Shown here: in pieces, positions 4,600 through 46,951 of the stretch
Layout: every line of letters begins with the position of its first letter
Position numbering within the stretch: the stretch's first letter is position 1
DNA from: Blastocatellia bacterium
GTDB lineage: Bacteria; Acidobacteriota; Blastocatellia; RBC074
Direction of reading: 5' to 3'
Assembly (NCBI GenBank): GCA_031423535.1
Contig: JANPFS010000932.1
Location: 1 to 50,196 of the forward strand
Length of the DNA stretch: 50,196 nt
Translations under genes and position numbers: made by a program
Notes under the pieces: model-generated
Databases searched by the model: none
What the model saw: only the letters and a program-made list of their open reading frames with translations
What the model was told of the DNA's origin: nothing

Positions 4600-6300
4600 A
4601 TGAAAACACGACCACAACCAAGCCTGGCATTGCGCAAGATCATTGCTCGTCTCACCTGGCTGCTGCTCTTTGCCGTCTCCGCGCTGGCGGCAACGCGGTT
4701 TGAGATTTCATATCCGGCAGAACTTGATGCCGGGCCGATCACTGGACGCGTGTTCGTGATGATCTCGAAGAGCAATCGCGTCGAGCCACGTTTGCAGGCC
4801 GGTTCGTACAACGCTTCCGTGCCATTCTACGGATTGGAGGTGAAGGCGTTGAAGCCGGGCGAGAGTGCGGTGCTTGACGCGGGCGTGTTGGGCTATCCCG
4901 TCGAGAGTTTGAGTCAGCTTCCAGCGGGCGAATATTACGTGCAGGCATTGCTGAACGTTTACACGCAGGTGCAGCGCAAGGACGGGCACGTGATCTGGGT
5001 TCACCTGGATCAATGGGAAGGTCAGCAGTGGAATCGTTCGCCGGGCAATCTGGTCAGCGAGGTACAGCAAATCCGGCTCGACCCGGCTGCCGGATTCAAC
5101 GTCAAGCTCAATTTGACGAAGAAGCTGCCGCCCGTCGCCATCCCGCCTGATACTGAATGGGTCAAGCGCGTGAAGATTCAGAGCAAACTGCTGACAGAAT
5201 TCTGGGGGCATCCGATGTATCTCGGCGCAACGGTCTTGTTGCCAAAGGGCTATGAGCAGGACACGAAGCAGAAGTATCCGGCGATCTACATTCAGGGGCA
5301 TTTTGGACTCGGCGCACCCTTCGGGTTTACGACGCAAGCACCCGCGATGCCGGAGAGTGAGGAGCAACGCAAAGCTCGGCTCAATCGGGGCGCACGAGAG
5401 ACGAGTTATGAATTTTCACAAGCGTGGATGGCGAACGATTTTCCGCGTATGGTGGCCGTGACGTTTCAGCATCCGACGCCGTATTACGATGATTCGTATG
5501 CAGTGAACTCCGCTAACAACGGGCCGTATGGCGATGCGTTGTTGACGGAGTTGATTCCGTATCTGGAAGAGCATTTTCGGCTGCGTGCGGAGCCGCAGGC
5601 GCGTGTATTGACAGGCGGTTCGACGGGCGGCTGGGAATCGTTGGCCTTGCAAATCTTGCATCCGAAGTTTTTCAACGGCACATGGTCAATGTATCCCGAT
5701 CCGGTAGATTTTCGGCGTTATCAAATGTCGAACGTGTACGAAGATGACAATGCGTTTGAAGTGCCGAGTTGCGATTGGGCCAAACTCATTCGCCCGCTGT
5801 CACGCAACGCCGAGGGGCAGGTCACGCTAACAATGCGCGAGATGAGCCGGTTGGAAGCCGTGCTGGGCAGCAACATCCGTTCAGGACAACAAATCGCGGC
5901 GTGGGATGCGGCATACGGGCCGGTGGGCAAGGACGGTTATCCGCGCCCGATCTGGGATCGGCTGACAGGCAAGATTGATCGTGAAGTGGCGTTGTATATG
6001 CGCGACAACGGCTACGATCTGCGTTACAACCTGGAAAAAAACTGGCAGCAGATCGGCCCTGATCTCGTCGGGAAGATTCACGTCTATTGCGGCGATATGG
6101 ACAACTATTATTTGAACCTCGCGGTCTATCACTTGCAAGATTTTCTAAAAGATGCCGCGAATCCCAAAGCCGACGCCGTGTTTGAATACGGGCGACCGAT
6201 GAAACCGCACGGCTGGCAACCGTTCACGAATGCTGAACTGGTGCGAATGATGGCCGCGCGCATCAACAAAACTATGCAAGCGAAGACCGCAGCAAAATAG
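4600..6300 (+). CDS. Secreted alpha/beta-hydrolase, putative esterase (enterochelin-esterase-like), 566 aa
   Basis: N-terminal signal-like hydrophobic segment. The nucleophile-elbow-like GGSTGGWESLAL lies in the C-terminal half. It is the only long ORF in this region; the antisense ORFs are low complexity. Confidence 0.7.
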   Translation: MKTRPQPSLALRKIIARLTWLLLFAVSALAATRFEISYPAELDAGPITGRVFVMISKSNRVEPRLQAGSYNASVPFYGLEVKALKPGESAVLDAGVLGYPVESLSQLPAGEYYVQALLNVYTQVQRKDGHVIWVHLDQWEGQQWNRSPGNLVSEVQQIRLDPAAGFNVKLNLTKKLPPVAIPPDTEWVKRVKIQSKLLTEFWGHPMYLGATVLLPKGYEQDTKQKYPAIYIQGHFGLGAPFGFTTQAPAMPESEEQRKARLNRGARETSYEFSQAWMANDFPRMVAVTFQHPTPYYDDSYAVNSANNGPYGDALLTELIPYLEEHFRLRAEPQARVLTGGSTGGWESLALQILHPKFFNGTWSMYPDPVDFRRYQMSNVYEDDNAFEVPSCDWAKLIRPLSRNAEGQVTLTMREMSRLEAVLGSNIRSGQQIAAWDAAYGPVGKDGYPRPIWDRLTGKIDREVALYMRDNGYDLRYNLEKNWQQIGPDLVGKIHVYCGDMDNYYLNLAVYHLQDFLKDAANPKADAVFEYGRPMKPHGWQPFTNAELVRMMAARINKTMQAKTAAK

Positions 6301-6498: not shown

Positions 6499-7014
6499 TT
6501 ATGAGCGAGGATTCTGTTCATTGACGAATGCGAGGCAGCGTTTGGCGAGCTTTGCTAACGGTTCGTTTTTTTGGCGCGATAAAGTCAGGAGTCGTTGTCT
6601 TAGCAAAGCCAGATTTTTGCACCCCATGCCACTTCCATCAGCAGCAGCGGTCAGCAAAATCAGTTTGTCCTGCTGTGCTTGTGGCCGCGTCGCTACGGCT
6701 TGTAAAAAAGTCTTCGGCTGAGTACATAACAAGTCGCTGAAGAAATCTCCCAAGGCTTCTGATATAGCCCCGTCACTATGCGGCGCAACATCCATAAGCT
6801 TGGGAAGCACGCTTTTATCACCTTGCTGGTAGAGGCGAGCTACCTTGTAAACGGACGTTTCGTCGCAGTCATACGGCGGCCCCGGATGCACACATTTGTG
6901 AAGCTCGGCGAGTAGTTGCGCCCGTTTTGTGGGATGAGTTGACCGCTGTTGTGCCCACGTCGGAGCGGCCAGCAACAGCGACATTCCAAGCAGGAGCAAG
7001 CCTTGGCATTTCAT
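6499..7014 (-). CDS. Secreted hypothetical protein (171 aa)
   Basis: Signal peptide MKCQGLLLLGMSLLLAAPTWA. No family recognised. Confidence 0.55.
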   Translation of the reverse strand: MKCQGLLLLGMSLLLAAPTWAQQRSTHPTKRAQLLAELHKCVHPGPPYDCDETSVYKVARLYQQGDKSVLPKLMDVAPHSDGAISEALGDFFSDLLCTQPKTFLQAVATRPQAQQDKLILLTAAADGSGMGCKNLALLRQRLLTLSRQKNEPLAKLAKRCLAFVNEQNPRS

Positions 7015-7029
7015 CAGAAACCTTTCTCA

Positions 7030-7608
7030 TTATTCCTTCAGATGCGATTCAATGCGGCGGTCGGGAATGAACCAGAGCGCCGCCACTGCGAAATAAATCC
7101 CCATCGAAAGCCACGCGTGAACGAAAGCTGGCATGGCGACCAGATAGGCTACGAGCGAGAGGTTGCCCTTGAAATCGCCACCGATGGCTTTGTGCAAGAC
7201 CGAGTCCTTCCCATGATGGCGCAACAGAATGCGCGTGAGGATCGAGTAAGCAACGCCAGCCATGAGCAGCACTAAGCCATAACAAATCACGGGAATCCGA
7301 TGAAAATGATTCTCCCCCATCCAGCCCGTGACAAAAGGAATCAAGGAGAGCCAGAACAACAAATGCAGGTTGGCCCACATGGTTGGCCCGTTCACTTGGC
7401 GCACAGCGTGCAGCAAATGGTGATGATTGTTCCAGTAGATGCCGACGTATACGAAACTAAGCACATAGCTAAGGAAGACCGGCAGCAAGGGGCGCAACGC
7501 GGCGAGGTCATCCCTGTGCGGAACCTTCAACTCTAAAACCATAATGGTGATGATGATGGCAATCACGCCATCGCTGAACGCTTCCAGGCGGCTTTTCCCC
7601 ACGGACAT
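7030..7608 (-). CDS. TMEM175/DUF1211-family potassium channel (192 aa)
   Basis: Signature RLEAFSDGVIAIIITIMVLEL at the N-terminus plus about 6 hydrophobic helices. Confidence 0.85.
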   Translation of the reverse strand: MSVGKSRLEAFSDGVIAIIITIMVLELKVPHRDDLAALRPLLPVFLSYVLSFVYVGIYWNNHHHLLHAVRQVNGPTMWANLHLLFWLSLIPFVTGWMGENHFHRIPVICYGLVLLMAGVAYSILTRILLRHHGKDSVLHKAIGGDFKGNLSLVAYLVAMPAFVHAWLSMGIYFAVAALWFIPDRRIESHLKE

Positions 7609-7946
7609 TCTCCTCTTCGTGCAAACTTTTCACGGCAGTATTTAGGCACTGCTATGACAACCGCATCTGCTTGGTTGGCGGCGGCATTGTGGGGGAACAA
7701 GAGGAGATCACCAAAGGTGACGGGGCATTGCTGGTCGCAGCGGAACTAAACTTTTTTCAGCCCCGCGCAGGCTTACGAAAAAATTGACGCTTATCTTTTC
7801 AGGAAAATCATTCGTAGGGCTAGAGAATGGCTGAAAACCGCGACCGCAACTAATAAGACCAGGCAACTTGGCACGCAGTATCGGCGCACAATAAAAAAAT
7901 CCCGATGATCATTCCAGGCACACGACGGAACTCGCCGAACGGTTGC

Positions 7947-8262
7947 GCCTAAACTTAGCCAAGACTTGGCTAAGTTTATTTCTGGTGTCCTGACGTGGTC
8001 TGCTCAGTAGGCAGAAACAGGCAGCGAAATTGGTATGGGCAATGGTTTCACTCAAGCATTTTCTCCCGCAATAGTGTCTGAGAGCGAGCATGGCAAGATG
8101 AACCTGCCAGATTACCAGACACGCCCAATCTTTCCTGCCTGTTGAAGGCTTAGCGACAAGCCCTTCTCGGAATCAGAGATGCGATAGATGTGGTGGATGA
8201 GTTCTTGTCACCAAACAATTCGCGCCTGGCAGTTAACCCGCGAAGCCTTTTATGCTCGTCAC
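7947..8262. repeat. Copy 1 (full, ~315 nt) of a dispersed conserved intergenic element; candidate structured ncRNA or non-autonomous mobile element
   Basis: Collinear with 9811-10122. Identical blocks are GTTTATTTCTGGTG (7974), GAAACAGGCAG (8014), TTCTCCCGC, GTCTGAGA (8076), CCTGCCTGTTGAAG (8134), GCGACAAGC (8153), GTTCTTGTCACC (8201), CAATTCGCGCCTGGC (8216) and GTTAACCC (8232). Terminal palindrome at 7951-7977. Internal complementarity: AAACAGGCAG with CTGCCTGTT, and GACAAG with CTTGTC. Confidence 0.7.
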
Positions 8263-8331
8263 TGTCAGTAGAACATTTGTGTGATGGTGTCCGGTGTGGG
8301 CATGCATAAGCTTTCCGCTCACCTCGACACG

Positions 8332-8661
8332 CTAACCGAGTGCGCCCTTATACTGGGCATACTGTTCCTTAGATAAAATGAGTTGTAGGTTGGAAACGGT
8401 CTTTTCCGGCTTCTCTCCGCCTAGCATATCTTTATCGGCGTTCACGCAGATCGGTCTGATGAGGTGTAGTATCCAGTAAGTTTCTGGCATGTCGCCCTTC
8501 TTCACATTCGCGTAGTTCGGTGGCCCAGCGAAAGTTTTCCGAGTGATTCTCCCCTTCAAAGTTACTGTTGCGGGTTCATAGGAAAGACAAACATGCGGCC
8601 TCATAGCATTCGATGAAAAACCAACGCTGAATAGCAGTATGAGCGAAATGAGCCATTTCAT
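8332..8661 (-). CDS. Small secreted hypothetical protein (109 aa)
   Basis: ATG 8661 is preceded by GGAAGGAGA. Signal peptide MKWLISLILLFSVGFSSNA. The longer ORF to 8745 lacks an RBS. Confidence 0.6.
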   Translation of the reverse strand: MKWLISLILLFSVGFSSNAMRPHVCLSYEPATVTLKGRITRKTFAGPPNYANVKKGDMPETYWILHLIRPICVNADKDMLGGEKPEKTVSNLQLILSKEQYAQYKGALG

Positions 8662-8757
8662 TTCCGTCTCCTTCCTTCTCAGAATTTTAATTTGGTCGTC
8701 AGTCGGTAAGTTGCCAAGCAAGTCTATTTTATGGTGGTGTGGCAATTGTGTTTCTCG

Positions 8758-9672
8758 TTACCCCCTTACCACAACCACGCGAAAGCCGATGTGATCATAA
8801 CGTCGTTCTGGTTCAAACCGCAGTCGAAATGCCGAACGCAATGGCCAGCCTTCATCGGCCCAGCAGCCACCCCGACGCGAACGTGAAATATCGCCGTGTT
8901 CGCTCCTGGTCGCCGTCGCCTTAGCGTCGTGCAAGTCAGGGTCAGTGCCACCGGGCAAGCGGTTGTGATACCAATCACGGCACCACTCATAGATATTGCC
9001 GTGCATATCGTATAAGCCCCAGGCGTTCGGCGGATAGCTGCCCACCTTGGCAGCCATCTTGAGCGAAGGCCCGGGTTCGGCTCCGTTATAGGGTTTGCCT
9101 CTAAAATTCGCCTGCTTGCTGCTCAGTTGATTGCCAAACGAAGTCGCCGTTGTCGTCCCCGCGCGGCAGGCATATTCCCATTGCGCTTCGGTAGGCAAAC
9201 GGAATTCCCAATCAGGCGGAAGCGCATTGGATTGGCGGGCGAGTACAGTGAGTTTCTGACAGAACGCTTCCGCCTCGGCGAAATTGACATTGCCGACGGG
9301 ATAATCATCGCCAGCAGGCAGTTCCGCTGTGAGTGGCCCCGGCAACGCGCCCATCACACGCCGCCAGTCACCCTGCGTAGCCTCAAATTTGGCCATCCAA
9401 AATCCTTTGGTCAACGTCACTTCAACTTGATTTTCGCCCGGACGCCGTTCGGGTTCATGGGGCGGGCTGCCCATCATGAACTTGCCCGGCGGACACCAGC
9501 GCAGTTTGATGCCGCCAATCTCGCGTTCATCTCCGGCTTGCAAGCCGTTGAACTCCGAGCGGGTAGGCGCATTGGTAGGGTTTTGTATTTGTCGCACTGA
9601 CTCGACGAGTTGTGTGCCGAGTGCGCCGAATGACAACAAGATCAGTGAGAAAATGCCTTTTTTGTATAGCAT
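8758..9672 (-). CDS. Secreted FGE-sulfatase (SUMF1/formylglycine-generating enzyme) domain protein, 304 aa
   Basis: Motifs seen: WCPPGKFMMGSP, FWMAKFEATQGDW, WEYACRAG, YDMHGNIYEWCRDWY, RGGCW and FRVV. N-terminal signal peptide. Confidence 0.85.
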   Translation of the reverse strand: MLYKKGIFSLILLSFGALGTQLVESVRQIQNPTNAPTRSEFNGLQAGDEREIGGIKLRWCPPGKFMMGSPPHEPERRPGENQVEVTLTKGFWMAKFEATQGDWRRVMGALPGPLTAELPAGDDYPVGNVNFAEAEAFCQKLTVLARQSNALPPDWEFRLPTEAQWEYACRAGTTTATSFGNQLSSKQANFRGKPYNGAEPGPSLKMAAKVGSYPPNAWGLYDMHGNIYEWCRDWYHNRLPGGTDPDLHDAKATATRSEHGDISRSRRGGCWADEGWPLRSAFRLRFEPERRYDHIGFRVVVVRG

Positions 9673-9810
9673 GACGTTATGTGGTTACTTCCTCTTTTTG
9701 CAGCATTAGCATCGCTTGGCGATGAATCGGTTGCTGCCCCATTAAGCGCTGTGTCCTGGCAAGGAGATTCACTTTTCTCTTTCACAGGCTTGCGGCATCT
9801 TTGTGACTAA

Positions 9811-10122
9811 ACGCATGTAAGACTTACCTGAGTTTATTTCTGGTGCCGTGATGCAGGTTGCGCAGCGGGCCGAAACAGGCAGGGAAGATTGTCGGGGCTA
9901 TGGTTTCCGCAAGCAGTTTCTCCCGCGAGGTTGTCTGAGAATGAAAGCAGCAAGGTGAACCTACGAGGTCAACGAACCAGTCCATTCTCCCCTGCCTGTT
10001 GAAGACTCCGCGACAAGCAGTTTCAGAATACAGAGATCGTGATAAAGGCGGTGGAGTGGTTCTTGTCACCCATCAATTCGCGCCTGGCTGTTAACCCATG
10101 AAGAGCAAGACAAGGTCGTCAC
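9811..10122. repeat. Copy 2 (full, ~312 nt) of the dispersed intergenic element
   Basis: Same block order and orientation as copy 1: 9832 GTTTATTTCTGGTG, 9872 GAAACAGGCAG, 9933 GTCTGAGA, 9991 CCTGCCTGTTGAAG, 10010 GCGACAAGC, 10059 GTTCTTGTCACC, 10074 CAATTCGCGCCTGGC, 10090 GTTAACCC. The terminal hairpin is kept by compensatory changes (GTAAG-A-CTTAC versus CCAAG-A-CTTGG). Confidence 0.7.
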
Positions 10123-10158
10123 AATATCCTGAAATTTTGCCAAGAGCGCACGGCATTA

Positions 10159-11127
10159 TCAGTAAAGATTGGCTATTTCCCACAGCTTAATTGTCCCCTC
10201 ACTACCGCAACTTGCCAATAAAGCTCCATCGGGTGAAAAAGCAATTCGGGAAACAAGCTTCTCATCGCCCACAAAGGTTGCCCTTAATTTCTCCGTTTGT
10301 GCGTCCCATATCCTTATTTTGCCATCTCGACCTGCTCCGGCAATCAATTTTCCATTTGCCGAAACTGCGACGGCCCACACAACGCCTGTTGATCGGAGTA
10401 GCGTGCTCAATGATGGCTGAGACAAATCCCAAACATTGATCTCCCCACCGATTTGATTGCCACTGTCCATGATGGCGCTCCCAATCACAATTTTTTTATG
10501 GTCAGGAAAAAAGGCTAATGCTTTCACCCAATTTTTCAATTGGGTTTTTTGCATCGGCTGCCAACTTTTCGTATCCCACAAAATTGTGCCACCGCTCATA
10601 TCACCGCTGACCATCAAATTCTCACCCGTTGCCATAGCAATACAATAAATAGGGTCTGTGTGAGCAGCGGGAAGCTTCTCGCGTTTCCAAGTTTTCATAT
10701 TCCAGCGAGAGAGTGAGGAGCCTTCTGCCCCGATGAGGTACGCATCATCTGGTGAGAAAGAGAGTGAGCTGACTTTCAGTTTGAGTTGTTGCTTTTGTTC
10801 TCCCGTTCGCGCGTCCCAAACAAAAACGTCGCTGGTATCATAGCAACCACTTGCAACCGTAGTGGCATCCTGCGAGAGAGCCAGGAACCAGACCCAGCCT
10901 TTATGTCTCTTGAAATGTTGTTTGATTTGCCCTGTTTGTACGTCCCAGACGATTACCATTTTATCTTGAGAACCGGTTATCAGTGTTTTCCCATCGGATG
11001 AAAATGCCAGCGACATAACATCGCTGGTATGGCCTTGCAGTATCAATTGGGGAGCGCGTACTTGAGCACAAATCAGGCCCGACAAATGAATCAACAAACA
11101 GGTTAAGAAAAAAGTCTTTTTCATCAT
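10159..11127 (-). CDS. Secreted WD40-repeat beta-propeller protein (322 aa)
   Basis: Repeated GH..V..LAFS.DGK.L.SGS.D..V.VWD units and an N-terminal signal peptide. Confidence 0.85.
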   Translation of the reverse strand: MMKKTFFLTCLLIHLSGLICAQVRAPQLILQGHTSDVMSLAFSSDGKTLITGSQDKMVIVWDVQTGQIKQHFKRHKGWVWFLALSQDATTVASGCYDTSDVFVWDARTGEQKQQLKLKVSSLSFSPDDAYLIGAEGSSLSRWNMKTWKREKLPAAHTDPIYCIAMATGENLMVSGDMSGGTILWDTKSWQPMQKTQLKNWVKALAFFPDHKKIVIGSAIMDSGNQIGGEINVWDLSQPSLSTLLRSTGVVWAVAVSANGKLIAGAGRDGKIRIWDAQTEKLRATFVGDEKLVSRIAFSPDGALLASCGSEGTIKLWEIANLY

Positions 11128-11428
11128 TTGGCTCTTTTACAGCGTTGCGCAAAATCTGTCGAACAATTCGTTCACCGGGCGCGTGTGTGAACATCAAAGA
11201 AACCAGATGCCACGACGCGTGCGCTCACGTGGAATAAATTATAGGTGTTCCTGCGAGAGAATTCGCTCCTGCGCTTCACTCCCTTTGTGATTCTGTTGTA
11301 GCGTGGGGCCGGACTCTGGCACAGGCTCGTGGGAGGAACGAATCTGGAATGAGTGGCGCTCGTAACGCCTGCTAACATACTTTCGCCCTCCCACGCTCCG
11401 GCTGTTCCTTGCAACGAATACTCAGATG

Positions 11429-12780
11429 ACGTTGACAGTAACAACTCTACTATAATTCCTTCGCCCTGGTACAGCCTGCCTGCTTCCGACCCGCTGGTTC
11501 TTTCCCTTTTTTAGGAGGGTTTATGGCAGACTTTGCAGCCTTTCTCGGCATTGATTGGGCCAATGACAAACACGATCTTTGCTTACTCGACGCTACGACC
11601 AACACCAAAGAATTCTTTACACTCGCACACAAGCCGGAAATCCTGGAGCAGTTTCTCGCCCAACTCCGCGCGCGCTATCCGCACCAACCTATCGCTGTCG
11701 GCTTGGCACAAGCGCGTGGTCCCTTACTCTTTGCTTTGCTCAAGTATGACTTCCTCACTCTGTACCCGATTCACCCCACCACGCTGGCACGTTATCGCGA
11801 AGCCTTCTCGCCCAGTCGTGCCAAGGATGATCCCACCGATGCTGAATATGCCGCCGAATTATTGCACCATCATCGGGATCGCCTCACCGCTTGGACGCCG
11901 GATGATGCGACGACGCGCACTTTGCAATTCCTGGTCGAGCAACGCCGTCGTCTGGTCAATGATCGCACGCGTTTTTCTAATCGCCTCACCGCCGCGCTGA
12001 AAGCCTATTTCCCGCAATCTCTCACCTGGCTGCCCGATCTGTGCACGCAAGTGGCTTGTGACTTCCTCACGCGCTGGCTCACGTTGGCCGCCGTACAGCG
12101 CGCTCGCCCAGCCACAATGGAAGCCTTCTTCCGCGCGCATCATTCCCATGCTTCGCTCCTTGCCCGTCGTCTGGCGGAGATCAAAGCCGCCATCCCGCTC
12201 GTCACGGATGAAGCCGTTGTCACCGCTTGCACACTGCTCGTCAGTGCTTTGGTGGCCCAACTGCAAGCCACGAGGCAGGCCATTGGTGAGCACGAGAGAT
12301 CTGTGCCACGCATCCCGACTTCCCACTCTTTGACGCGCTGCCTGGTGCGGGTCGTGTCTTTGCCCCACGCTTGCTGGCTGCTTTGGGAACCCAGCGCACG
12401 CGCTTCGTTGATGCCCAGGCCCTGGCTTGTTTCACGGGCATTGCGCCCGTCATTGAACGCAGCGGGCATTCCTGTTGGACACGTTGGCGCTACTTCTGTC
12501 CCAAGTTCTTGCGCCAGACTTTTCACGAGTATGCGGGCGAATCCATCAAATTCTGTGGCTGGGCCAAGGCCTTCTATCATCTCCAACGTAGCAAGGGCAA
12601 AGGCCACGCGGCAGCCTTACGCGCCCTGGCCTTCAAATGGCTTCGCATCATCTGGAAGTGCTGGCAAACCCGCACGCCTTACGATGAAGCCCGTTATTTG
12701 GCGCAATTGAAGAAAACAGGATCACCGTTAATTCCTTTATTGGAGGCGACTCTGAGCTGATTCTTTCTTGACAACTCCAC
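11429..12780 (+). mobile_element. IS110-family insertion sequence (minimal candidate boundaries)
   Basis: Contains the IS110-type transposase gene. An 8-bp direct repeat CTCAGATG sits at 11421-11428 and 12781-12788. Subterminal TTGACA..ACAACTC occurs at both ends (11432 and 12768). The 1352-bp size fits the family. The left boundary could instead lie further upstream, near 11.2 kb. Confidence 0.5.
11523..12760 (+). pseudogene. IS110-family transposase (DEDD N-terminal domain + Transposase_20 C-terminal domain) interrupted by one frameshift
   Basis: The N-terminal part runs in frame from ATG 11523 (FLGIDWANDKHDLCLLD ..., RBS TAGGAGGG). The C-terminal part (THPDFPLFDALPGAGRVFAPRLLAALGTQRTRF ... 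IAPVIERSG) is in another frame. The switch maps to the GAGAGA run at 12294-12299. Confidence 0.8.
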
Positions 12781-12807
12781 CTCAGATGGATGTTAGGAGT
12801 TGTTCCT

Positions 12808-13482
12808 TCATGGCCGAGGCATCTTGCTTTGCAGAGTCTTCACGAACTCCGGGTCAATCTCTGAGTCACCTGGTGTAGCCTCAGCCAACTTAACTTTCTT
12901 CCACGCCTCAGCGTAGTTGCCCGCGTAGTAAAGTGCAATTGCCCAGTTCTGTATGTTCAGCTTGTGCTGCGGAGCCTTTTTGTAGACACGCGCGAACCGA
13001 GCAAAGGCATCGTTCATAAGCTTTTCGTTCTTGGTTTGTGTCCCCGCCATGGCAAGTGTCTTGGCATAGTCAGTAGTAAAATTATGATCGTTACTAACAT
13101 GTGCTTCAGCTTCAGCAAAGAGCTTCAAAGACTCATCGAATTTTTCCTCGCTAGCCTGAATTGCGGCCATTCCCCATAAGGCGGTACTGTTTGCATTATC
13201 AAGAAGCCAGGCTTGGTTAAAGCGCCTCATTGCGTCCGGCAAGTTCCCCTGCCTGAGAGACTGCCAACCGCGAGCGGAGAATTCTTTGGCTGCCTTCTTT
13301 CGGTTTCCCTTGTAAATGTCGTCAATGCTGGCGAGGAATTTCGCGTCCACTTCCTTCTGCACTTCAGTCTTTGGCTGCAAGCCGTATTTAGGCAAGAGGT
13401 TTATATCTTGCGCAAACGCGTTCGATAATAAGGTAACCAAGGCCAGTGCAAGAACTATGAAATTAACCTGATATTTGTGCAT
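12808..13482 (-). CDS. Secreted TPR-repeat protein (~224 aa)
   Basis: ATG 13482 follows TAGGAG. Signal peptide, then TPR-like helical repeats (AMRRFNQAWLLD, ALWGMAAIQA, AEAWKKVKLAE). Confidence 0.7.
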   Translation of the reverse strand: MHKYQVNFIVLALALVTLLSNAFAQDINLLPKYGLQPKTEVQKEVDAKFLASIDDIYKGNRKKAAKEFSARGWQSLRQGNLPDAMRRFNQAWLLDNANSTALWGMAAIQASEEKFDESLKLFAEAEAHVSNDHNFTTDYAKTLAMAGTQTKNEKLMNDAFARFARVYKKAPQHKLNIQNWAIALYYAGNYAEAWKKVKLAEATPGDSEIDPEFVKTLQSKMPRP

Positions 13483-13686
13483 AAAGACTCCTAACAACCC
13501 GTTCACCGGGCGTGGCCGTGTGACCGTGATTGACGCACTGCCTGATGGCCACCTCGACGTTCCCAGTATTCATCTTTTTCTGCACGCAGAAAACTAAAAT
13601 ATGGCCCTGTTAATTTGTAGACGAAGTCTATCATATCAACGAAGGCCTAATGCCATATTAGATGACGTCTCTGCCCGAAGCCGATA

Positions 13687-15852: not shown

Positions 15853-16096
15853 ACTTGATTGATACCTCGTTTTTATTAACAATACCTTCGCCAAATTTGA
15901 AGGAATTGGAAAACCACAATCGTTGAAAACAAAGCGGCTTTGAAAATTGCGAGAAACGTGCAAATAATTAAAACGGATGCTGAAAAACGCAGAACGCATT
16001 TTAATTGTATCTGCTGTATTTGCCTATACTTAGAAAGCCAATAAAAACAGCCTCGAAAAACAAGTTTTCAACCATCATTTTGGCGAAGGTATTGTA

Positions 16097-16795
16097 TTAA
16101 GCAACTTCATTCTCTGGACAGAGACTCAACAAAGGCAGGCTGCGGCGCTCAACGAAGCCCATCTTTTCGTATACTCTTTTTGCACTTTCATTTTCCTGTC
16201 CGACATGAAGAAAAGGGTCAGTTCCTCGCTTCAGCATCTCCTTCACCACTCTCTGCACTAATCGCTGGGCATATCCACGGCCTCTGAAATCAGGATGCGT
16301 ACACACCGCACTTACTTCCTGATAGCCCGATACGGACATGCGCTCACCGGCCATCGCGACCAACAAGCCACCTACACGGACTCCAAAATAAGCTCCTAAT
16401 TCATGTGTTCGTGGACGAAAGTAGCCCGGAAAAGCCAAAGCCGTTAACGCCAGCATGTCTGACACGTCCGCTTCGGACAAAAGCTTGACGTCTTGTTTTT
16501 CCTCATTGAGATTCACCGCATGAGACCAAACCATCTGAGTGATACTTCCATGCTCTTTTACCTTCAATCCAGGCAGCAGGAAGGGGGAGCTACCTACCAA
16601 GTAAACAACTTCGCCTGTTGTAATCAGCGAGGTTAGAGCGGTGATGCTCATTGGCGTTGGATGATGAAACGCAGCAAAGGGAGCGACGTCAGAACGGTAT
16701 CGTTTTGCGAGTTTCGCGCCCCAAGAAAATTTGGAGTGGTGCGAGCATAGAGCGTGCCAGATAGGATTATCTAAAACGTGTTCGTTCATTTTCAT
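16097..16795 (-). CDS. GNAT-family N-acetyltransferase (FR47-like), 232 aa
   Basis: Acetyl-CoA binding motif in THPDFRGRGYAQRLV ... KRVYEKMGF. Confidence 0.85.
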   Translation of the reverse strand: MKMNEHVLDNPIWHALCSHHSKFSWGAKLAKRYRSDVAPFAAFHHPTPMSITALTSLITTGEVVYLVGSSPFLLPGLKVKEHGSITQMVWSHAVNLNEEKQDVKLLSEADVSDMLALTALAFPGYFRPRTHELGAYFGVRVGGLLVAMAGERMSVSGYQEVSAVCTHPDFRGRGYAQRLVQRVVKEMLKRGTDPFLHVGQENESAKRVYEKMGFVERRSLPLLSLCPENEVA

Positions 16796-23632: not shown

Positions 23633-24145
23633 TTCTTTCGAGGTTGAGGAACGAAGGGATCAGTGCGTCGCTAACGGGAAACTCTTTCTTAAGTGGCGAC
23701 CGGCTGGCAAGCAGTTTGAGGACTTTGCCCATCGCACCAGAAACCCAACGCTGCGTGACGGGTCGCATTATCTCGCGAGTAATCGAATTCGAGCAACAGA
23801 AAATTGCTTCGCCTGTGACCGACCACTCGCAATGCCTCGTACCCATTCTGGAGAGATTAGTCAGCAGGATGTGCCGTGATCGCCAGCCGACGAATTGAGT
23901 TTCCCTGCCTGTTGATGCAGGCACGGGTGATCCGTTCACGGCAACAGGTGATGTCCAAATGGAATTTCTTGCCACAGTTAAAACAGGCAGAGAACATTGA
24001 TGGGGTCTGCAACGATCCAACTACATTCTCATCTGGCGCAGGGAATTGCCGTAGTTCTTTGGGAACAAAACCATCCATCCAGCGATTGAAACAGCGGCTG
24101 ACCAAATGAATAACGCTGAACCTCACAACTCTTAGCGATTCTTCT

Positions 24146-26988: not shown

Positions 26989-27116
26989 CGGTTGGGCGAT
27001 GTCTTATGGATAAAGTGTATCTGGAGTGCGAACCAAATTGGCAAGCAAACACCAGAGATCAGATTCCGGTGATTATTTTACCCTGTCACTTGCTGTGTGC
27101 GAGTTGTTTCGCACGT

Positions 27117-27255
27117 GCCTAAACTTAGCCGGGACTTGGCTAAGTTTATAGGTGATGGCTGGACGCGATTTGTAGCAACGGAATGAACAGGCAGCAAAAT
27201 TTATAGGGTTGTGGTTGCTTCCAGCGATTTGTCCCGCAGCCGTCTCGAGCAATAC
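27117..27255. repeat. Copy 3 (truncated, left ~140 nt only) of the dispersed intergenic element
   Basis: Shares GCCTAAACTTAGCC...GGCTAAGTTTAT (hairpin 27121-27147), GAACAGGCAGC, GGTT, TTGTCCCGC and GTCTCGAG with copies 1 and 2. Similarity is lost before the stop of the 27322 gene. Confidence 0.6.
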
Positions 27256-27321
27256 GAAGGGCAGCCACAAGTTCCGCTTCCGGTCACGCCGACTCTGCTC
27301 ATCTCCCAACCTCAGCATTTC

Positions 27322-27543
27322 TCACGGCGTGTTGCGTTGTCGGTAGGCAGTTACAGCCTCAATCGCTCCCTCATGTATTTGTTCCGGGCGAACATAGCGC
27401 CAGTGCTTTTCAAACTCCTCTTCCGTCATTGCCGTTTGTACGGCGCGTTCTTTCGCTTTGAGCCACTTTTCCGCCCAGGCACGGATTTCGTCATTATGGT
27501 TAAGCGCCATGCGCGCTGCATGCATTGTGATGGGTTCATTCAT
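27322..27543 (-). CDS. Small helical hypothetical protein (73 aa)
   Basis: Clean ORF with charged helical composition. No family recognised. Confidence 0.45.
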   Translation of the reverse strand: MNEPITMHAARMALNHNDEIRAWAEKWLKAKERAVQTAMTEEEFEKHWRYVRPEQIHEGAIEAVTAYRQRNTP

Positions 27544-27656: not shown

Positions 27657-28121
27657 CTATGCTTTCAAGCGCGGATCAAAGCGGAATTTCGCTGGCGCTG
27701 AGATGTGCAGCTTCCCGAAATCTTTGTGTTGCGGATTAAGCAGGAAATTGAACTCACTCGGAATAATGGCGGACGGTACTTTGAGCAACAGCGACGAACC
27801 GCGTTGCAGCCACGCGCTGCCGAGCGCCTGCGTCGTGACGGGTGGGTCTTCGTCCCACCAATCGGGTGCTAATGAGGCTGGGTCAATCGTCTCCACCTTG
27901 ATGCCCTTCGGAACCGTGACCGTGAGGCAGACATAGTCATCAGGCAGTGTTTGATGCGAGAAATGCACCAGACATTCGAGCGCCGCCAGCGCCAGCGAGC
28001 CGCCCAGATACACCACCGACTCACCATGATGATTCCAACGCCCACCGGCTAAACTGGCGCCCAACCCACTAAAGGCCGTCGCCTGATAGCGGCTACTGCA
28101 CAAGCGAAACAACACCATCAA
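27657..28121 (-). CDS. RES-domain toxin (type II TA; ParT/MbcT-like NAD-targeting family)
   Basis: LCSSRYQATAFSGLGASLAGGRWNHHGESVVYLGGSLALAALECLVH is the typical RES-domain N-terminus. There is a 4-nt overlap with the upstream antitoxin gene. Confidence 0.85.
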   Translation of the reverse strand: MMVLFRLCSSRYQATAFSGLGASLAGGRWNHHGESVVYLGGSLALAALECLVHFSHQTLPDDYVCLTVTVPKGIKVETIDPASLAPDWWDEDPPVTTQALGSAWLQRGSSLLLKVPSAIIPSEFNFLLNPQHKDFGKLHISAPAKFRFDPRLKA

Positions 28122-28579
28122 CTGAAGACTCCATGTTCGATGCGAATCAGCACATCCTCGACGCGCCGTGTCCCTTCGTCGGTGTCCAACAACGACAGCG
28201 GTGTTTGCATGTGCAGTGCGCGATTGGGTTCTTTGAGCCAGAGCCGCGCTTTGTCGCGTGAGCCAAACACTTCTTCGGTGCGCGCAATGATGCGCGCCAG
28301 CCGGTAAAGCCGATCCGATTCGACGGGGCTGAGCCGATTTTCCGCTTTGCGCCGCGCCCAGGTACGCGTGGAAACCGCGATGATCTTCTGCGCCAGATCG
28401 TCCGACAGTTCATAGAGTCCTTTGAGGAACAGCAGCGTGTCAAAGCGCAAGCCTCGTTGAATGGCGGGAATCAAACTCTGTTGTTTATTGGATTCTTTGC
28501 CGACGTATTTGGTGCCGCCGAGGATTTCGATGATTTTGTCGGTTTCGGTCATAGGCTTCTCCTTCTTGCCAAGTGGCAA
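28118..28579 (-). CDS. Xre-like antitoxin with DUF2384 (MbcA/ParS toxin-binding) domain
   Basis: C-terminal motif W...PN.AL....PL.LL.T..G...V...L.RI..G (ARLWLKEPNRALHMQTPLSLLDTDEGTRRVEDVLIRIEHGVFS). Located upstream of the RES gene and overlapping it. Confidence 0.85.
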   Translation of the reverse strand: MPLGKKEKPMTETDKIIEILGGTKYVGKESNKQQSLIPAIQRGLRFDTLLFLKGLYELSDDLAQKIIAVSTRTWARRKAENRLSPVESDRLYRLARIIARTEEVFGSRDKARLWLKEPNRALHMQTPLSLLDTDEGTRRVEDVLIRIEHGVFS

Positions 28580-36088: not shown

Positions 36089-36937
36089 TCATCCGTTTGA
36101 TTCGCGCCGCGCAAAATGGGACGCATTCGTTTGGAATTCCTGATTGACGGCACGCACAGTAAAGGCACTGGGCTGAAAATCTCGTCCTGCCAACTCGCGC
36201 CATTCTCGATAATCCCGATGGCGCCGATTCCTGAGTATGTGCATCATCTCAATGTAGCCCCACGGTCCGCCACAATCTTCGGGTGGGCAAGCCCGCTGCC
36301 CAGCCACACAGCGCTGATAAAACGTGCGCTTCGTTGCCAGCACGATTTTCTCGACCGTAATGCAGTGTCGCCAATCATCGCCGAAATCATATTGATAGGT
36401 GAACGAATCGCCTTCGTGCAAAACATCACCAACAAGGGCTGTCTCGCTTATGTCCTCACCATCATACGGATCGCGCAAATAAAACTTATGTAAATGGAAG
36501 CCTTCCCAGCCCATCGCTATTTGAATCATGGTGCTGAGTTGGAGCAGCGTGTGATCGTCATAAAGCTGTACACGTCGCCAGACGACAGGCCGCACACCTT
36601 CAAGCGTGATCTTGAGTTGAAAGACGAGCGCAGGCGGCGTTGATTTCGTTTTGGGCGTAGTGCGCTTGCGTGTTTTGGGTTGGCTGGGCGGATAAAGTTC
36701 GAGATCGTCGTCGAGGATGGCCTCAATGCTGACGCCACCGGCACGGGCGTAAGCTAGCAGCAGCAACAAGTCGGGTTCGCGCTGCCCAGTCTCGAATTGC
36801 GACACGTAATGCCGTGCCCGCATTCCATCCAGTTGGAGGCGAGTCATGAGTTCACTCTGCGACAATTGCAGGTGTTGGCGGATCGCACGCAGTTTCTCGC
36901 CCAACCGGAAGGGGCGAAGGCGGGCCGCTTTTCCCAT
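36089..36937 (-). CDS. XRE-family HTH fused to a pRiA4b ORF-3-like (PF07929-type) domain, 282 aa
   Basis: The N-terminus LGEKLRAIRQHLQLSQSELMTRL is an HTH_XRE. The C-terminal FQLKITLEGVRPVVWRRVQLYDDHTLLQLSTMIQIAMGWEGFHLHKF ... YQYDFGDDWRH ... CPPEDCGGPWGY is the PRiA4_ORF3 signature. RBS AAAGGAGA. Confidence 0.8.
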   Translation of the reverse strand: MGKAARLRPFRLGEKLRAIRQHLQLSQSELMTRLQLDGMRARHYVSQFETGQREPDLLLLLAYARAGGVSIEAILDDDLELYPPSQPKTRKRTTPKTKSTPPALVFQLKITLEGVRPVVWRRVQLYDDHTLLQLSTMIQIAMGWEGFHLHKFYLRDPYDGEDISETALVGDVLHEGDSFTYQYDFGDDWRHCITVEKIVLATKRTFYQRCVAGQRACPPEDCGGPWGYIEMMHILRNRRHRDYREWRELAGRDFQPSAFTVRAVNQEFQTNASHFARRESNG

Positions 36938-40448: not shown

Positions 40449-43400
40449 GTGCCAGCGCAACGCAATTCTGGGCTATCTTCTGTTCGCCTGCATTTACGGA
40501 CTGCAAATAACTATATGGCTTCTTTTCATCAATCTATTTTTCTTCGTGTTCGTACCTTCGTAAAAAACACTCTGCATGCATACGTGATAAAGCGAATAAA
40601 CCAGAGTATGCAAAGTGAAAACGCGATGTACTCACCCGCTCAAGTCAACAGATTGCTCAACGCTTCTCCAGCGCAAGAAATCCATAATCTCATTCAAGAG
40701 GGGTTTTCTGACTCGTTGCCTTTGTCAAAATGGGCAGAACTGACACGACAATACTTGGTATTACAAAAACAGGAATACTTAATTGCAGCAATTCAAGCGG
40801 CATCAGGAGAACATCCAACGGGTCTATGGTCAGACCTAAAACGGCGGTCGGCCTCAAAATCGCCCGGTATTGTCAACGTACTCAGATCTCTACTATTTGG
40901 AAGCTTACCGGGGGCAATGGAAACAGCGCCACAACTCATCAAAACGCTGATACAAGCAGGGCGTAAGCAGGATGCCGCAACTTTGATATTGGCCGGGGAT
41001 TTTCACAAAGTCGCGCTGACCGAAAGGTTCAAGAAATTTCCGCTGGAGCGACAAATGGAAATGGCACAATTGGGAATTCAGGCAGCACAACAATCCGCAC
41101 AACTTGCCGCTGCGCTGGGTTATGTGAGTTACACTGCGCATTGTCATCTATGTATGGGGAATGCGTTACAGGAGCAGCATCGCTTTGAGGAAGCAACGCA
41201 CAGCTATGAAGAAGCGTTACAAATTCGACAGCAGTTGGCGCAGCAGCAACCGGATAATTATCTGCCGGATGTGGCGATGACGCTGAACAATTTGGGACTT
41301 GTGTTACGCGAACAGCGGCGGTTTGAGGAAGCAACACGCAGTCTTGAAGAAGCGTTGCAGAGCTATCGGCAATTAGCGCAGCAGCAACCGGATATTTATC
41401 TGCCGGATGTGGCGATGACGTTGGGCAATTTGGGGCTTGTGTTACGGTCGCAGTGGCGGTGGGAGGAAGCAACACGCAGTCTTGAAGAAGCGTTGCAGAT
41501 TCGACGGCAATTAGCGCAGCAGCAACCGGATATTTATATGCCGGGTGTGGCCGCGACGCTGGTTAATTTGGGGACTTCGTTAGGCGAACTGCGGCGGTGG
41601 GAGGAAGCGACACGCAGTCTTGAAGAGGCGTTGCAGATTCGACGGCAATTAGCGCAGCAGCAACCGGATAATTATCTGCCGGATGTAGCGACAACATTGG
41701 GCAATTTGGGGAATTCGTTATTGGTGCAGCAAGGGTTAAAGAAAGTGACGCACAGCTATGAAGAAGCATTGCAGATACAACGGAAATGGGCGCAGCAGCG
41801 GTCTGATATTTATCTGCCGGATGTGGCGATGACGCTGGTTAATTTGGGGAATTCGTTACGCGAACAGCGGCGGTGGGAGGAGGCAACACGCAGTCTTGAA
41901 GAAGCGTTACAGAGCTATCGGCAATTGGCACAGCAGCAACCGGATAATTATCTGCCGGGTGTGGCCGCGACGCTGTACAATTTGGGACTTGTGTTAGTCG
42001 AACAGCGGCGGTTGGGGGAAGCAACACGCAGCTATGAAGAGGCTTTGGAAATAGGGAAACGATTTCCTGCTGGAGAACTCCACTTAAAGCTTTTAAGTTC
42101 ACTCGGAGCGCGGCATTTCGAAGCGAGTAGGATAGAACCGGCGATAGGATATTTAGCGCAGGCTCATGAGTTGATAGAAACATTCAGCTCTGCCGCCGTG
42201 ACACCTGTAAGGCGGCGGCAAATTCGAGATCAGCATTATGAGGCGACGAACCTGTTAGCTCTGTGCCAAACACAACAGTGTGAATACACGCAGGCATTGA
42301 CGATTATCGAGGCTGGCAAAGGGCGCGTGTTGAATGAAATGATGGCAGAAGGATTGTCTTTCGCCGACACCGTGCCAGTAGCGTTACGGGAGCGGTTCTG
42401 GCAGGCACGGCAACATGTATTTGAGTTTCCCGCTTTGCCTGAACGACAGGACGAAGATAACGATCAATGGGGCAAAGTGGTTAATGATTATCGAGTTCGT
42501 CGTTCGGCGGCTGACACGGCATTATTGCAGGTAAGAGACGAACTCCGGCCCTTGGACTCTACATTCAAGGCACTGAGTGAGCCGTTAGATGCGGCGGAAA
42601 TGCAGAACCTTGCCAAACAAACCCATACAATTCTGGCGCAATTCAGCGTTACCAAATATGGCAGCCTGATTTATGTCATCTTCCCTGATGGCTCGCTCGA
42701 AGCCATTCAATTGCCCGATTTCACTTTAGGAAAACTCGAGGCGTTGCTGATTACAATTGAAAATGAAAAAGAGGTTGGCGGATGGTTAGTTGATTATGAT
42801 TCAGCCTTACGATCAAAACAGCTACAAAACTGGTTTCTTACGATGACGATCACGTTGGAGGAAGCACAGGCTGGGTTAATGCAACCATTGCACGACCTGT
42901 TGCAAAAACGCCATATTGCCACCGGATCACATCTCGTATTTGTGCCGACACGCGGTTTGTCATTGTTGCCGTTACATGCTTGTTGGTGGGAAGAAGCAGG
43001 GCGGCGGAAATATTGGTTGGATGAATACGTAATTAGCTACGCGCCCAGCCTGAGTATCCTACAACGTTGTCAGGCGCGGAGAGCCGAACGCCAAAGCGAT
43101 GACCGATTATTTGGCGCAGCGAATCCGAGGCGAGATTTGTTGTATACCGAACTGGAGTGCGCGGAAATCGAACAATTATTTGGTCACGAGAATGCCTTGC
43201 TCTGGCATGAAGCTGCCACAAAAGAGGCCGTGTTGCAGGGAATAAAACAGGCGTCCACTTTGCATTTTTCGTGCCATGGCAATTTTCAGTTAAATGATCC
43301 TCTGGCTTCGGCGCTGCAAATGTCGGATGGCGAATTAACAATGCGCGACATAATGCAACAAGGGCGATTGAGCCATAACGATCTGACGGTATTATCCGCC

Positions 43401-43799
43401 TGTGAGACCGCGCAAAGCGATTACCGTGAACTTGCCGACAACCATTTTACACTCGCCAGCGCGTTTCTGTGTATTGGCGCTCCTACGGTGTGGGCGACAT
43501 TGTGGGCGGTCAATGATTTGTCCAGTTCACTTTTGCTGATTGAGGCGATGCAACGAATGCGCCAAAACAACCTAAGCAAAGCTGAAGCCTTGCGCGGGGC
43601 GCAATTATGGTTACGCGATGCAACGAACTCAGAGTTATCAAAAATAGTCGAAGAGAAGCTCAACGCGCTTGGATTGAGCGCAGATAAGAATTTGAGAAGA
43701 GCGTTGCAAGAATTAAGCGGTCGCCTTAATCCCAAATCAGACGAGCGCCCATTTTTACATCCCTATTATTGGGCCGGTTTTCAATCGGTCGGAGCGTAA
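40449..43799 (+). CDS. TPR-repeat CHAT-domain (caspase-fold) protease, up to 1116 aa
   Basis: About 6.5 copies of a 46-aa TPR-like repeat (EEATRSLEEALQIRRQLAQQQPDIYLPDVAMTLGNLG). The C-terminal CHAT domain carries His in LHFSCHGNF, Cys in LTVLSACETAQ, and a terminal HPYYWAGFQSVGA. The start codon is uncertain (GTG 40449, ATG 40515, 40608 or 40626). Confidence 0.9.
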   Translation: MPAQRNSGLSSVRLHLRTANNYMASFHQSIFLRVRTFVKNTLHAYVIKRINQSMQSENAMYSPAQVNRLLNASPAQEIHNLIQEGFSDSLPLSKWAELTRQYLVLQKQEYLIAAIQAASGEHPTGLWSDLKRRSASKSPGIVNVLRSLLFGSLPGAMETAPQLIKTLIQAGRKQDAATLILAGDFHKVALTERFKKFPLERQMEMAQLGIQAAQQSAQLAAALGYVSYTAHCHLCMGNALQEQHRFEEATHSYEEALQIRQQLAQQQPDNYLPDVAMTLNNLGLVLREQRRFEEATRSLEEALQSYRQLAQQQPDIYLPDVAMTLGNLGLVLRSQWRWEEATRSLEEALQIRRQLAQQQPDIYMPGVAATLVNLGTSLGELRRWEEATRSLEEALQIRRQLAQQQPDNYLPDVATTLGNLGNSLLVQQGLKKVTHSYEEALQIQRKWAQQRSDIYLPDVAMTLVNLGNSLREQRRWEEATRSLEEALQSYRQLAQQQPDNYLPGVAATLYNLGLVLVEQRRLGEATRSYEEALEIGKRFPAGELHLKLLSSLGARHFEASRIEPAIGYLAQAHELIETFSSAAVTPVRRRQIRDQHYEATNLLALCQTQQCEYTQALTIIEAGKGRVLNEMMAEGLSFADTVPVALRERFWQARQHVFEFPALPERQDEDNDQWGKVVNDYRVRRSAADTALLQVRDELRPLDSTFKALSEPLDAAEMQNLAKQTHTILAQFSVTKYGSLIYVIFPDGSLEAIQLPDFTLGKLEALLITIENEKEVGGWLVDYDSALRSKQLQNWFLTMTITLEEAQAGLMQPLHDLLQKRHIATGSHLVFVPTRGLSLLPLHACWWEEAGRRKYWLDEYVISYAPSLSILQRCQARRAERQSDDRLFGAANPRRDLLYTELECAEIEQLFGHENALLWHEAATKEAVLQGIKQASTLHFSCHGNFQLNDPLASALQMSDGELTMRDIMQQGRLSHNDLTVLSACETAQSDYRELADNHFTLASAFLCIGAPTVWATLWAVNDLSSSLLLIEAMQRMRQNNLSKAEALRGAQLWLRDATNSELSKIVEEKLNALGLSADKNLRRALQELSGRLNPKSDERPFLHPYYWAGFQSVGA
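41176..42060 (+). repeat. Intragenic tandem repeat, 138-nt period, ~6.4 units (TPR units of the CHAT protein)
   Basis: The TTTGAGG/GTGGGAGG phase marker recurs at 41184, 41322, 41460, 41598, 41736, 41874 and 42012. Units are highly similar at the nucleotide level. Confidence 0.9.
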
Positions 43800-46892: not shown

Positions 46893-46951
46893 TCCAATTC
46901 AGTAAATAAACCCAGACATTTTGTGCAACACTAAACTTGTAGAATATGGCC

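Follow-up and report, generated by a model that had tools for sequence, protein, structure and literature searches.

A lineage-restricted family of structured, non-coding interspersed repeats in a Pyrinomonadaceae-like genus of the Acidobacteriota

Introduction

What are two long, collinear repeats doing on either side of a two-gene block in an acidobacterial genome, and how did they come to be there? The window considered here, 50,196 nt long, is the whole of contig JANPFS010000932.1 from a metagenome-assembled genome (MAG; GCA_031423535.1) of a Pyrinomonadaceae-like Acidobacteriota. It carries two intergenic repeats, copies A and B, for which an initial annotation of the sequence had put forward a structured RNA, a non-autonomous mobile element or the ends of a composite unit. 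We find that A and B belong to a lineage-restricted, insertion-polymorphic family of structured, non-coding interspersed repeats in a Pyrinomonadaceae-like (Acidobacteriota) genus; the family is new, its general kind already known. Proteobacteria are well known for structured repeats of this interspersed kind (REP/REPIN, ERIC and Correia elements). To our knowledge hardly any have been described from the Acidobacteria, a phylum that is dominant in soil and little studied.

Results

Copies A and B are a genuine repeat pair

Copies A (7950-8245) and B (9808-10103) are collinear, lie on the same strand and are about 75% identical. A repeat search recovered them as three direct-repeat segments at a constant offset of 1857-1858 nt, namely 7943-8049/9801-9907 (74% identical), 8053-8180/9910-10037 (71%) and 8183-8245/10041-10103 (83%). 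The identical blocks on which the pair had originally been recognised were found again, as 10 identical runs of 8-15 nt in the pairwise alignment with diverged linkers between them. The longest block common to both copies, the 24-nt CAATTCGCGCCTGGCNGTTAACCC, occurs twice in the window against 0.00 occurrences expected. The long-range motifs AAACAGGCAG (8015 and 9873) and CTGCCTGTT (8135 and 9992) also stand at the spacing claimed for them, about 110 nt apart. Moreover, an independent Logan assembly of SRR20217180 contains a 5.8-kb contig that equals window positions 7725-13520 at 100%, and the arrangement of A and B is therefore no assembly artefact. A look-up with the IS110 protein encoded in this stretch led back to this one Logan contig alone.

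The limits of the two copies had to be redrawn by comparison with a related MAG, GCA_018268995.1 (hereafter L011), which carries a locus syntenic to the window. The 3′ ends had been placed at 8262 and 10122. The conserved 3′ ends lie at 8245 and 10103, and the flank common to L011 restarts at 8246. On the 5′ side, where the repeats had been thought to start at 7947 and 9811, the inserted segment reaches 7805 in A and about 9692 in B.

The pair belongs to a family of at least five copies

That the repeat might be multi-copy was borne out: three copies lie in the window (A, B and C) and two in L011 (D and E). An nhmmer profile built from A and B located copy C at about 27115-27244, in their orientation (E = 3e-14). 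Copy D occupies L011 positions 16014-16360, with a DNA polymerase B gene on one side and the esterase gene on the other (E = 8.5e-48), and copy E lies at about 6019-6350 of L011, upstream of a response-regulator operon (E = 7.5e-38). A profile built from the five copies finds every one of them at E = 6.5e-47 or better, and a covariance model (CM) of the core scores them at 121-215 bits, copy C reaching 121.6 bits. The cores are 49-77% identical to each other. In the 3′ module, identity is 79% between A and B and 56-57% between either of these and D.

Outside these two genomes of related soil Acidobacteria the family was not encountered. No copy was present in about 62 kb from more distant relatives (L009, L010, L012, L013 and L015-L018). 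A search of 185,579 species genomes with the exact pattern CAATTCGCGCCTGGCNGTTAAC, which is too strict for D and E, gave a single chance-level match in Pseudomonas segetis; a gapped 5′ pattern, likewise too strict for D and E, gave five matches in the JGI (Joint Genome Institute) metagenomes, all attributable to chance by nhmmer. A degenerate pattern had 0 matches in viral contigs, and blastn against plasmids and phages returned no relatives. On the sequences searched, the distribution is patchy and lineage-specific. Extrapolated from what is a very small sample, five copies in about 71 kb, a whole genome would contain a few hundred.

Relatives have empty sites

A non-autonomous mobile element, one of the options raised at the outset, should be missing from orthologous sites of relatives, and this is what we observed at sites A, B and C. 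At site A, the 137-nt spacer of L011 is homologous to window 7676-7804 (z = 10.9 against shuffles), and the window has an extra 441 nt (7805-8245) where L011 has the 10 nt CTCTCGGACA. The insertion is clean. It has no target duplication, and the 10 nt of L011 are missing from the window. For site C the comparison is with L008, a related locus orthologous to this region and 83% identical to the window. Its alignment to the window breaks off at 27077 and restarts at 27293; the flanks are 79-90% identical, and where L008 has about 8 nt of its own the window has some 207-212 extra nt. Imperfect CCCTG/CTCTG sequences flank this insertion, and L008 has CCCTCTG once.

At site B, the flanks common to L011 end at 9691 and resume at 10150. 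The window-specific spacer between them (9692-10149, 458 nt) comprises B, its leader and a further 46 nt, and L011 has 182 unrelated nt instead. By eye, this 182-nt spacer had looked like a decayed ortholog of B, a candidate that we rejected after a shuffle test (z = 2.4, not significant). None of the five copies occupies a site common to both genomes.

The repeats are non-coding and match no known RNA family

The view that the repeats do not encode protein held up. The 84 substitutions between A and B split 30/29/25 over the codon positions and stop codons interrupt every frame of both copies, so that A and B are non-coding because codon periodicity is absent and no frame is open. For the 81-codon open reading frame (ORF) that crosses B, a full HMMER scan of 1.84 billion representative proteins gave only two low-complexity matches.

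The proposed identity with the Acido-Lenti-1 motif fell when the Rfam check that had been asked for was run: neither this motif nor any other Rfam family matched. With Rfam 15 the whole window had 0 matches at the gathering threshold, and permissive scans gave only noise at E > 5 over A and B and nothing below E = 0.89 over D and E. The models without a match include the HEARO/IscB omega-RNA, the IS605-orfB motifs, group II introns and retron msr. A tRNA or tmRNA origin was set aside after ARAGORN found nothing. By inspection, the conserved 3′ blocks could be read as sigma-54 or sigma-70 promoters; these readings were dropped, as they do not hold across A, B and D. Promoter and terminator scans of the copies stayed at background level.

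A modular element with a compensated fold

Read on the + strand, the element consists of a leader of 34-145 nt, a 5′ hairpin of 29 nt, a core of about 165 nt and, in the long forms only (A, B and D), a 3′ module of about 105 nt (Table 1). The short forms C and E are devoid of the 3′ module; both break off at almost the same position, within the 3′ arm of the long helix. The leader is poorly conserved: A and D have its proximal 45 nt or so in common, B and E about 110 nt, weakly, and the outer part is copy-specific. The 5′ hairpin comes in two compensated forms: A and C have CTTAGCCAAG/CTTGGCTAAG, and B, D and E have CGCATGTAAG/CTTACCTGAG; in copy A it has a terminator-like score on the + strand. 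A weak 6-bp stem, TTCGCG/CGCGAA, is present at the right end of A and degraded in B. On the minus strand, the leader of A contains at 7901-7918 a small hairpin with a T7 run (CCTGGAATGATCATCGGG ATTTTTTTAT), about 30 nt past the big hairpin. It would end a minus-strand transcript crossing the element and is not conserved in B or D.

The consensus fold was obtained with RNAalifold from the three long forms and its pairs were counted over all five copies, so that the structure derives from three of the five sequences counted. On the + strand it comprises the 5′ hairpin, a long nested rod and a 3′ domain. The centre of the rod is an 18-20 bp long-range helix, AACAGGCAG.../...CTGCCTGTT, through which the two halves of the core are predicted to pair into an irregular rod. 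This fold has 93 pairs; 83.7% of the cells form standard pairs (32-45% when the partners are slid), and 19 pairs are changed on both sides (3-8 when slid). None of 500 shuffles reached this number of double changes, none reached the covariation score, and on four of the five measures the observed value was unmatched by any shuffle. The corresponding - strand fold has 73 pairs, 83.1% of cells paired and 13 pairs changed on both sides, a number reached by 37 of 500 shuffles, with 23 of 500 reaching its covariation score. Most of the covariation sits in two helices that are Watson-Crick on both strands. Choosing the strand by counts of G.U against A.C pairs was tried and given up, since each predicted structure merely favours its own strand.

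The conserved self-complementarity with compensatory changes that the initial annotation had reported is kept in the 5′ hairpin and in the long-range helix. In the hairpin (helix 1), 98% of the cells are paired. Its compensation between A and B is real and involves three pairs, which set A apart from B, D and E, rather than the two counted earlier. The clearest case is offered by copy D, which has AACAGATAG...CTATCTGTT in place of AACAGGCAG...CTGCCTGTT: its AACAGATAGGAAAGAATGG and CCATTCTTTCCTATCTGTTT are fully paired, and two neighbouring pairs carry GC-to-AT double changes when compared with A and B. As for the shorter pairing proposed between GACAAG (8155, 10012) and CTTGTC (8204, 10062), both motifs are present in A and B about 45 nt apart, but the pairing is lost in D.

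Table 1. Coordinates of the repeat copies, their parts and the neighbouring genes in the window
Feature	Position	Strand	Basis
Copy A, whole inserted segment, 441 nt	7805-8245	+	L011 flank comparison
Copy A, copy-specific leader	7805-7904	+	
Copy A, conserved proximal leader, hairpin, core and 3′ module	7905-8245	+	nhmmer E = 5e-98 (7905-8244)
Copy A, 5′ hairpin TAAACTTAGCCAAG-A-CTTGGCTAAGTTTA, 14/14 pairs, 1-nt loop, then TTTCTGG	7950-7978	+	inverted-repeat search
Copy A, 5′ arm of long-range helix AACAGGCAGCGAAATTGG, partner 8126-8143	8016-8033	+	helix 7 of consensus fold
Copy A, 3′ arm of long-range helix CAATCTTTCCTGCCTGTT	8126-8143	+	inverted-repeat search, consensus fold
Copy A, 3′ module, blocks CTGCCTGTTGAAG, GCGACAAGC, GTTCTTGTCACC, CAATTCGCGCCTGGCAGTTAACCC	8134-8245	+	alignment
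Copy B: leader 9692-9807, hairpin 9808-9836, core, 3′ module	9692-10103	+	nhmmer E = 4.4e-98
Copy B, 5′ arm of long-range helix, 89% complementary to 9983-10000	9874-9891	+	inverted-repeat search
Copy B, 3′ arm of long-range helix	9983-10000	+	inverted-repeat search, consensus fold
Copy C, short form: 34-nt leader, hairpin 27120-27148, core only	27086-27297	+	nhmmer E = 6.5e-47 (5-copy profile)
Possible decayed fragment, uncertain, blocks CCCTGCCTGTTGATG, AAAACAGGCAGAGAACATTGATGGGG	23903-24036	+	nhmmer E = 0.006, CM E = 0.037
Esterase gene	4600-6300	+	ORF annotation
TMEM175-like gene	7030-7608	-	ORF annotation
Small DUF4431-like gene, adjoins copy A	8332-8745	-	ORF annotation, DUF4431 assigned separately
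FGE-sulfatase gene	8758-9672	-	ORF annotation
WD40 protein gene	10159-11127	-	ORF annotation
IS110-family DEDD transposase gene	11523-12710	+	ORF annotation

Discussion

Mobility as the favoured explanation

How, then, did the copies reach their sites? We lean towards regarding the repeats as non-autonomous mobile elements, the folded single strand of which would be the substrate of a trans-acting enzyme. We do so because they are multi-copy, non-coding and lineage-restricted, occupy different sites in sister genomes with clean junctions at two of them, fold back on themselves and show no consistent orientation relative to genes. Indeed, both neighbours of A and of B lie on the opposite strand and both neighbours of D on the same strand, whereas C sits between convergent and E between divergent genes, an inconsistency that argues against a dedicated cis-regulatory role. 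Gene-less elements of this kind would be copied into intergenic DNA by an enzyme encoded elsewhere in the genome, and the conserved fold-back would probably be recognised by this enzyme in a single-stranded intermediate, whether DNA or RNA. Inserted copies would probably be transcribed together with adjacent genes, with possible incidental effects on termination or mRNA stability. Mobility in trans, the single-stranded intermediate and the absence of a cellular function are all what we infer.

Several observations weigh against this reading. Core identity among the copies, 49-77%, is far below the 80-92% found at the nucleotide level for orthologous genes of the two hosts, and the five copies include no near-identical pair of the sort that recent transposition would predict. 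Such divergence implies either that the family is old, with several active lineages that have diverged, or that each copy is under selection. An inverted-repeat search over 7000-11000 found no terminal inverted repeats joining about 7805 to about 8245 or about 9692 to about 10103, and target-site duplication is not consistent, only the imperfect CCCTG/CTCTG being seen at C and none at A. No candidate mobilising enzyme was found in the approximately 71 kb of the two host genomes, and the ends of the IS110 element are unrelated to the repeat. Site B looks like the replacement of a spacer and not like a clean insertion. Finally, insertion was told from deletion by a single comparison genome per site, and the sample consists of five copies, two of which, C and E, are without the 3′ arm of the main helix.

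Other explanations of the family

The conservation of the fold invites a different account, which we consider rather unlikely while giving it more weight than any other alternative: the copies would be dispersed genes encoding a structured RNA of about 300 nt that acts in trans, for example as the guide or scaffold of a nuclease or recombinase of transposon origin with its gene elsewhere, or as a regulatory small RNA, each copy being kept by selection and the insertion polymorphism being secondary. Conserved blocks with variable linkers and a multi-helix fold with compensatory changes in 19 pairs speak for such an RNA, and conservation in the face of 49-77% identity is more easily explained by purifying selection on each copy. 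The fold is also better supported on the + strand than on the - strand (19 against 13 double changes, reached by 0 against 37 of 500 shuffles). The invariant G.U pairs of helices 2, 5 and 6 and of the C hairpin would be A.C mismatches on the other strand, and in the predicted structure they give a weak hint of the + strand. However, counts of G.U against A.C cannot decide which strand is transcribed; no Rfam family matches, the HEARO/IscB and IS605-orfB motifs included; no conserved promoter is found, promoter and terminator scans being at background; and two of the five copies are without the 3′ arm of the main helix. Furthermore, no tnpB, iscB, reverse transcriptase or cas gene was found in about 71 kb of the two hosts, and the two genomes have no copy in common at an orthologous site.

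Selection could also act through the adjacent genes, as has been proposed for ERIC and REP elements, if the repeats had been exapted as cis modules, that is as terminators, mRNA-stabilising structures of 3′ untranslated regions or outward promoters. Some positions fit. The stop codon of a minus-strand gene is 25-87 nt away from the end of A, of B and of C, the hairpin of A with its T-rich tail is terminator-like on the + strand, and immediately upstream of the hairpins of C and D is the end of a gene on the same strand. B lies about 20 nt upstream of the start region of the FGE-sulfatase gene, so that this gene must be transcribed through B or from within it. Yet gene orientation around the five copies is inconsistent, some 300 nt with many conserved helices far exceeds what a terminator needs, and the orthologous genes of relatives manage without the element. 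A cis-regulatory role is possible for individual copies and does not explain the family, for which we judge this account improbable.

A more doubtful idea still is that the RNA itself is mobile, either as a stand-alone family of guide or scaffold RNAs of an unlinked transposon-derived enzyme or as a retro-element resembling the short interspersed elements (SINEs). Retro-mobility would explain the copy-specific sequence on one side of the element, as a transduced flank, the truncation of C and E on the opposite side at internal points that nearly coincide, and the 5-nt microhomology (CTCTG) at the truncated junction of C, on the strength of five copies and one junction. We know of no retro-mobile RNA in bacteria other than introns and retrons.

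That nothing has moved at all, the repeats being decayed coding remnants or hypervariable spacers exchanged by recombination whose similarity is incidental, strikes us as very improbable. The copies are indeed very diverged and the spacer at site B is replaced rather than interrupted; but there is no conserved reading frame, codon periodicity or protein homologue, five copies at unrelated loci have collinear blocks and compensated helices in common, and the junctions with conserved flanks are clean at sites A and C. The composite transposon or cassette suggested by the presence of exactly two genes between same-orientation copies, with A and B as ends that move the 109/137-aa DUF4431-like and FGE-sulfatase genes, is scarcely credible and indeed refuted, since L011 holds the two-gene block in the same syntenic place, within the same five-gene order at 88-92% nucleotide identity and without either repeat, which makes the block resident and the repeats added, and since A and B are merely 71-79% identical and each nearest to a different copy elsewhere.

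Comparison with known mobile elements

If the repeats are mobile elements, as we favour, which known systems do they resemble? REPINs are doublets of REP (repetitive extragenic palindromic) sequences that form hairpins and are mobilised by RAYT tyrosine HUH transposases (PMC3116915, PMC3337134). Like them, the present repeats are non-coding, intergenic, multi-copy and lineage-restricted, are devoid of terminal inverted repeats of the DDE type, and are presumed to be mobilised in trans through a single-stranded hairpin. In both, a pair of inverted arms, each about 20 nt long, folds into a long hairpin kept by compensatory change (18-20 bp here, with the GC-to-AT changes of D). However, REPINs measure about 100 nt, against 300-440 nt for the element with its additional 5′ hairpin and 3′ module, and the arms of the latter are about 90 nt apart, separated by a conserved structured spacer and embedded in a larger element. 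By inspection, no GTAG/CGTC tag adjoins its palindromes, and the divergence among its copies far exceeds that of a typical REPIN population. No RAYT or other Y1_Tnp-type (HUH) gene was present among the annotated ORFs of the window or of L011 (about 71 kb).

ERIC elements, of about 127 bp, are restricted to Enterobacteria and Vibrio, and in ERIC and YPAL a hairpin at the RNA level is thought to be under selection. The repeats share with them a long imperfect fold-back, a probably transcribed intergenic location, presence or absence between close relatives and the coexistence of long and short forms. They have no sequence relationship to them, and add a strong 5′ hairpin and a 3′ module. By analogy, the element probably works much as REPIN- or ERIC-type fold-backs do, although at three to four times their size and with additional conserved domains.

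Classical bacterial MITEs (miniature inverted-repeat transposable elements), too, are small, non-coding, non-autonomous, intergenic, foldable as RNA and polymorphic between strains (PMC11602168). In contrast to MITEs, the repeats have no terminal inverted repeats, no consistent target duplication and, in the window, no autonomous insertion sequence with matching ends. By inspection, the two ends of A (AAATCATTCG... and ...CCCGCGAAG) are not complementary, nor are those of C (TCACTTGC... and ...CACGCCGA). As multi-copy, non-coding sequences present or absent at orthologous sites, they are nonetheless interspersed repeats. By analogy they would be closer to elements of the REPIN/RAYT or IS200/IS605 type than to cut-and-paste MITEs with terminal inverted repeats.

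Palindrome-associated transposable elements (PATEs) derived from IS200/IS605 and the omega-RNA scaffolds of TnpB and IscB, to which the initial annotation had also pointed, likewise have hairpin ends without inverted repeats or target duplication and bodies of about 150-300 nt, and may occur as stand-alone copies. The left junctions of the repeats differ from these in having no conserved target tetranucleotide (...TCAGGA in A, ...TACTTC in B and ...CCCTG in C), and the strong hairpin lies 34-146 nt from the left end. The approximately 71 kb covered from the two hosts contained no tnpB, iscB or IS200/IS605 tnpA gene.

The initial annotation had reported no adjacent transposase, reverse transcriptase, TnpB/IscB or cas gene. 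This is right for the window except in the first respect, since an IS110 gene lies 1.4 kb from B. The insertion sequence to which it belongs (about 11240-12807) contains the only transposase of the window and has a 283-nt non-coding left end, the region where elements of this family encode their bridge RNA. It is absent from the syntenic position of L011, where homology stops at 11239, and is thus a recent insertion specific to the genome of the window. Its non-coding ends showed no significant similarity to the copies, one of 20 tests giving z = 3.7 and the rest falling below 2. Unlike an IS110 bridge RNA or an IS1111 seekRNA, the nearest copy, B, is parted from the IS110 gene by the WD40 gene, and copies D and E of L011 have no DEDD gene within 20 kb.

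The family is unusual in its size (300-440 nt) and in its compensated multi-helix fold, and it is without the hallmarks of DDE-type MITEs. The mobilising enzyme could for these reasons reveal a hairpin-recognising or RNA-based mobility system in the Acidobacteria. In practical terms, such repeats break MAG assemblies and can pass for riboswitches or sRNA genes. Were this merely a selfish repeat, its description would be a useful annotation and no surprise.

Gene neighbourhood and other features of the contig

The locus of L011 runs WD40 - FGE-sulfatase - DUF4431 - TMEM175 - esterase, with 82-92% nucleotide identity to the window. The DUF4431-like gene has 109-137 codons in the window (8332-8745) and was called with 255 codons in L011 (10904-11671), where the call overlaps the TMEM175 gene; this reflects a differing stop codon or a gene-calling artefact in L011. 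Next to copy C, a 73-codon minus-strand gene (27322-27543) is kept in L008 at 89.5% nucleotide identity, and a RES toxin / Xre-MbcA-ParS antitoxin pair follows at 27657-28579 (- strand).

At the start of the contig, two identical 39-nt direct repeats (CCGTCTGAGGATGAGTGCCGCGACTGAGCGGATTGAGAC; 126-164 and 200-238) enclose a unique 35-nt spacer. The reverse complement of this repeat, GTCTCAATCC...CAGACGG, is CRISPR-repeat-like, and the pair may represent a minimal array or an orphan one; the ORFs that follow it contain no recognised cas domain. Six tandem 138-nt repeats (41155-42144, 64-81% identical) within the TPR-CHAT gene at 40449-43799 (1116 aa) are protein (TPR) repeats and not a non-coding array. 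A PRiA4_ORF3-like gene lies at 36089-36937, and the contig ends with two large RHS-repeat proteins (43917-50122, - strand). Taken together, the RHS, PRiA4_ORF3-like, toxin-antitoxin and insertion sequence genes suggest a variable, accessory-rich region.

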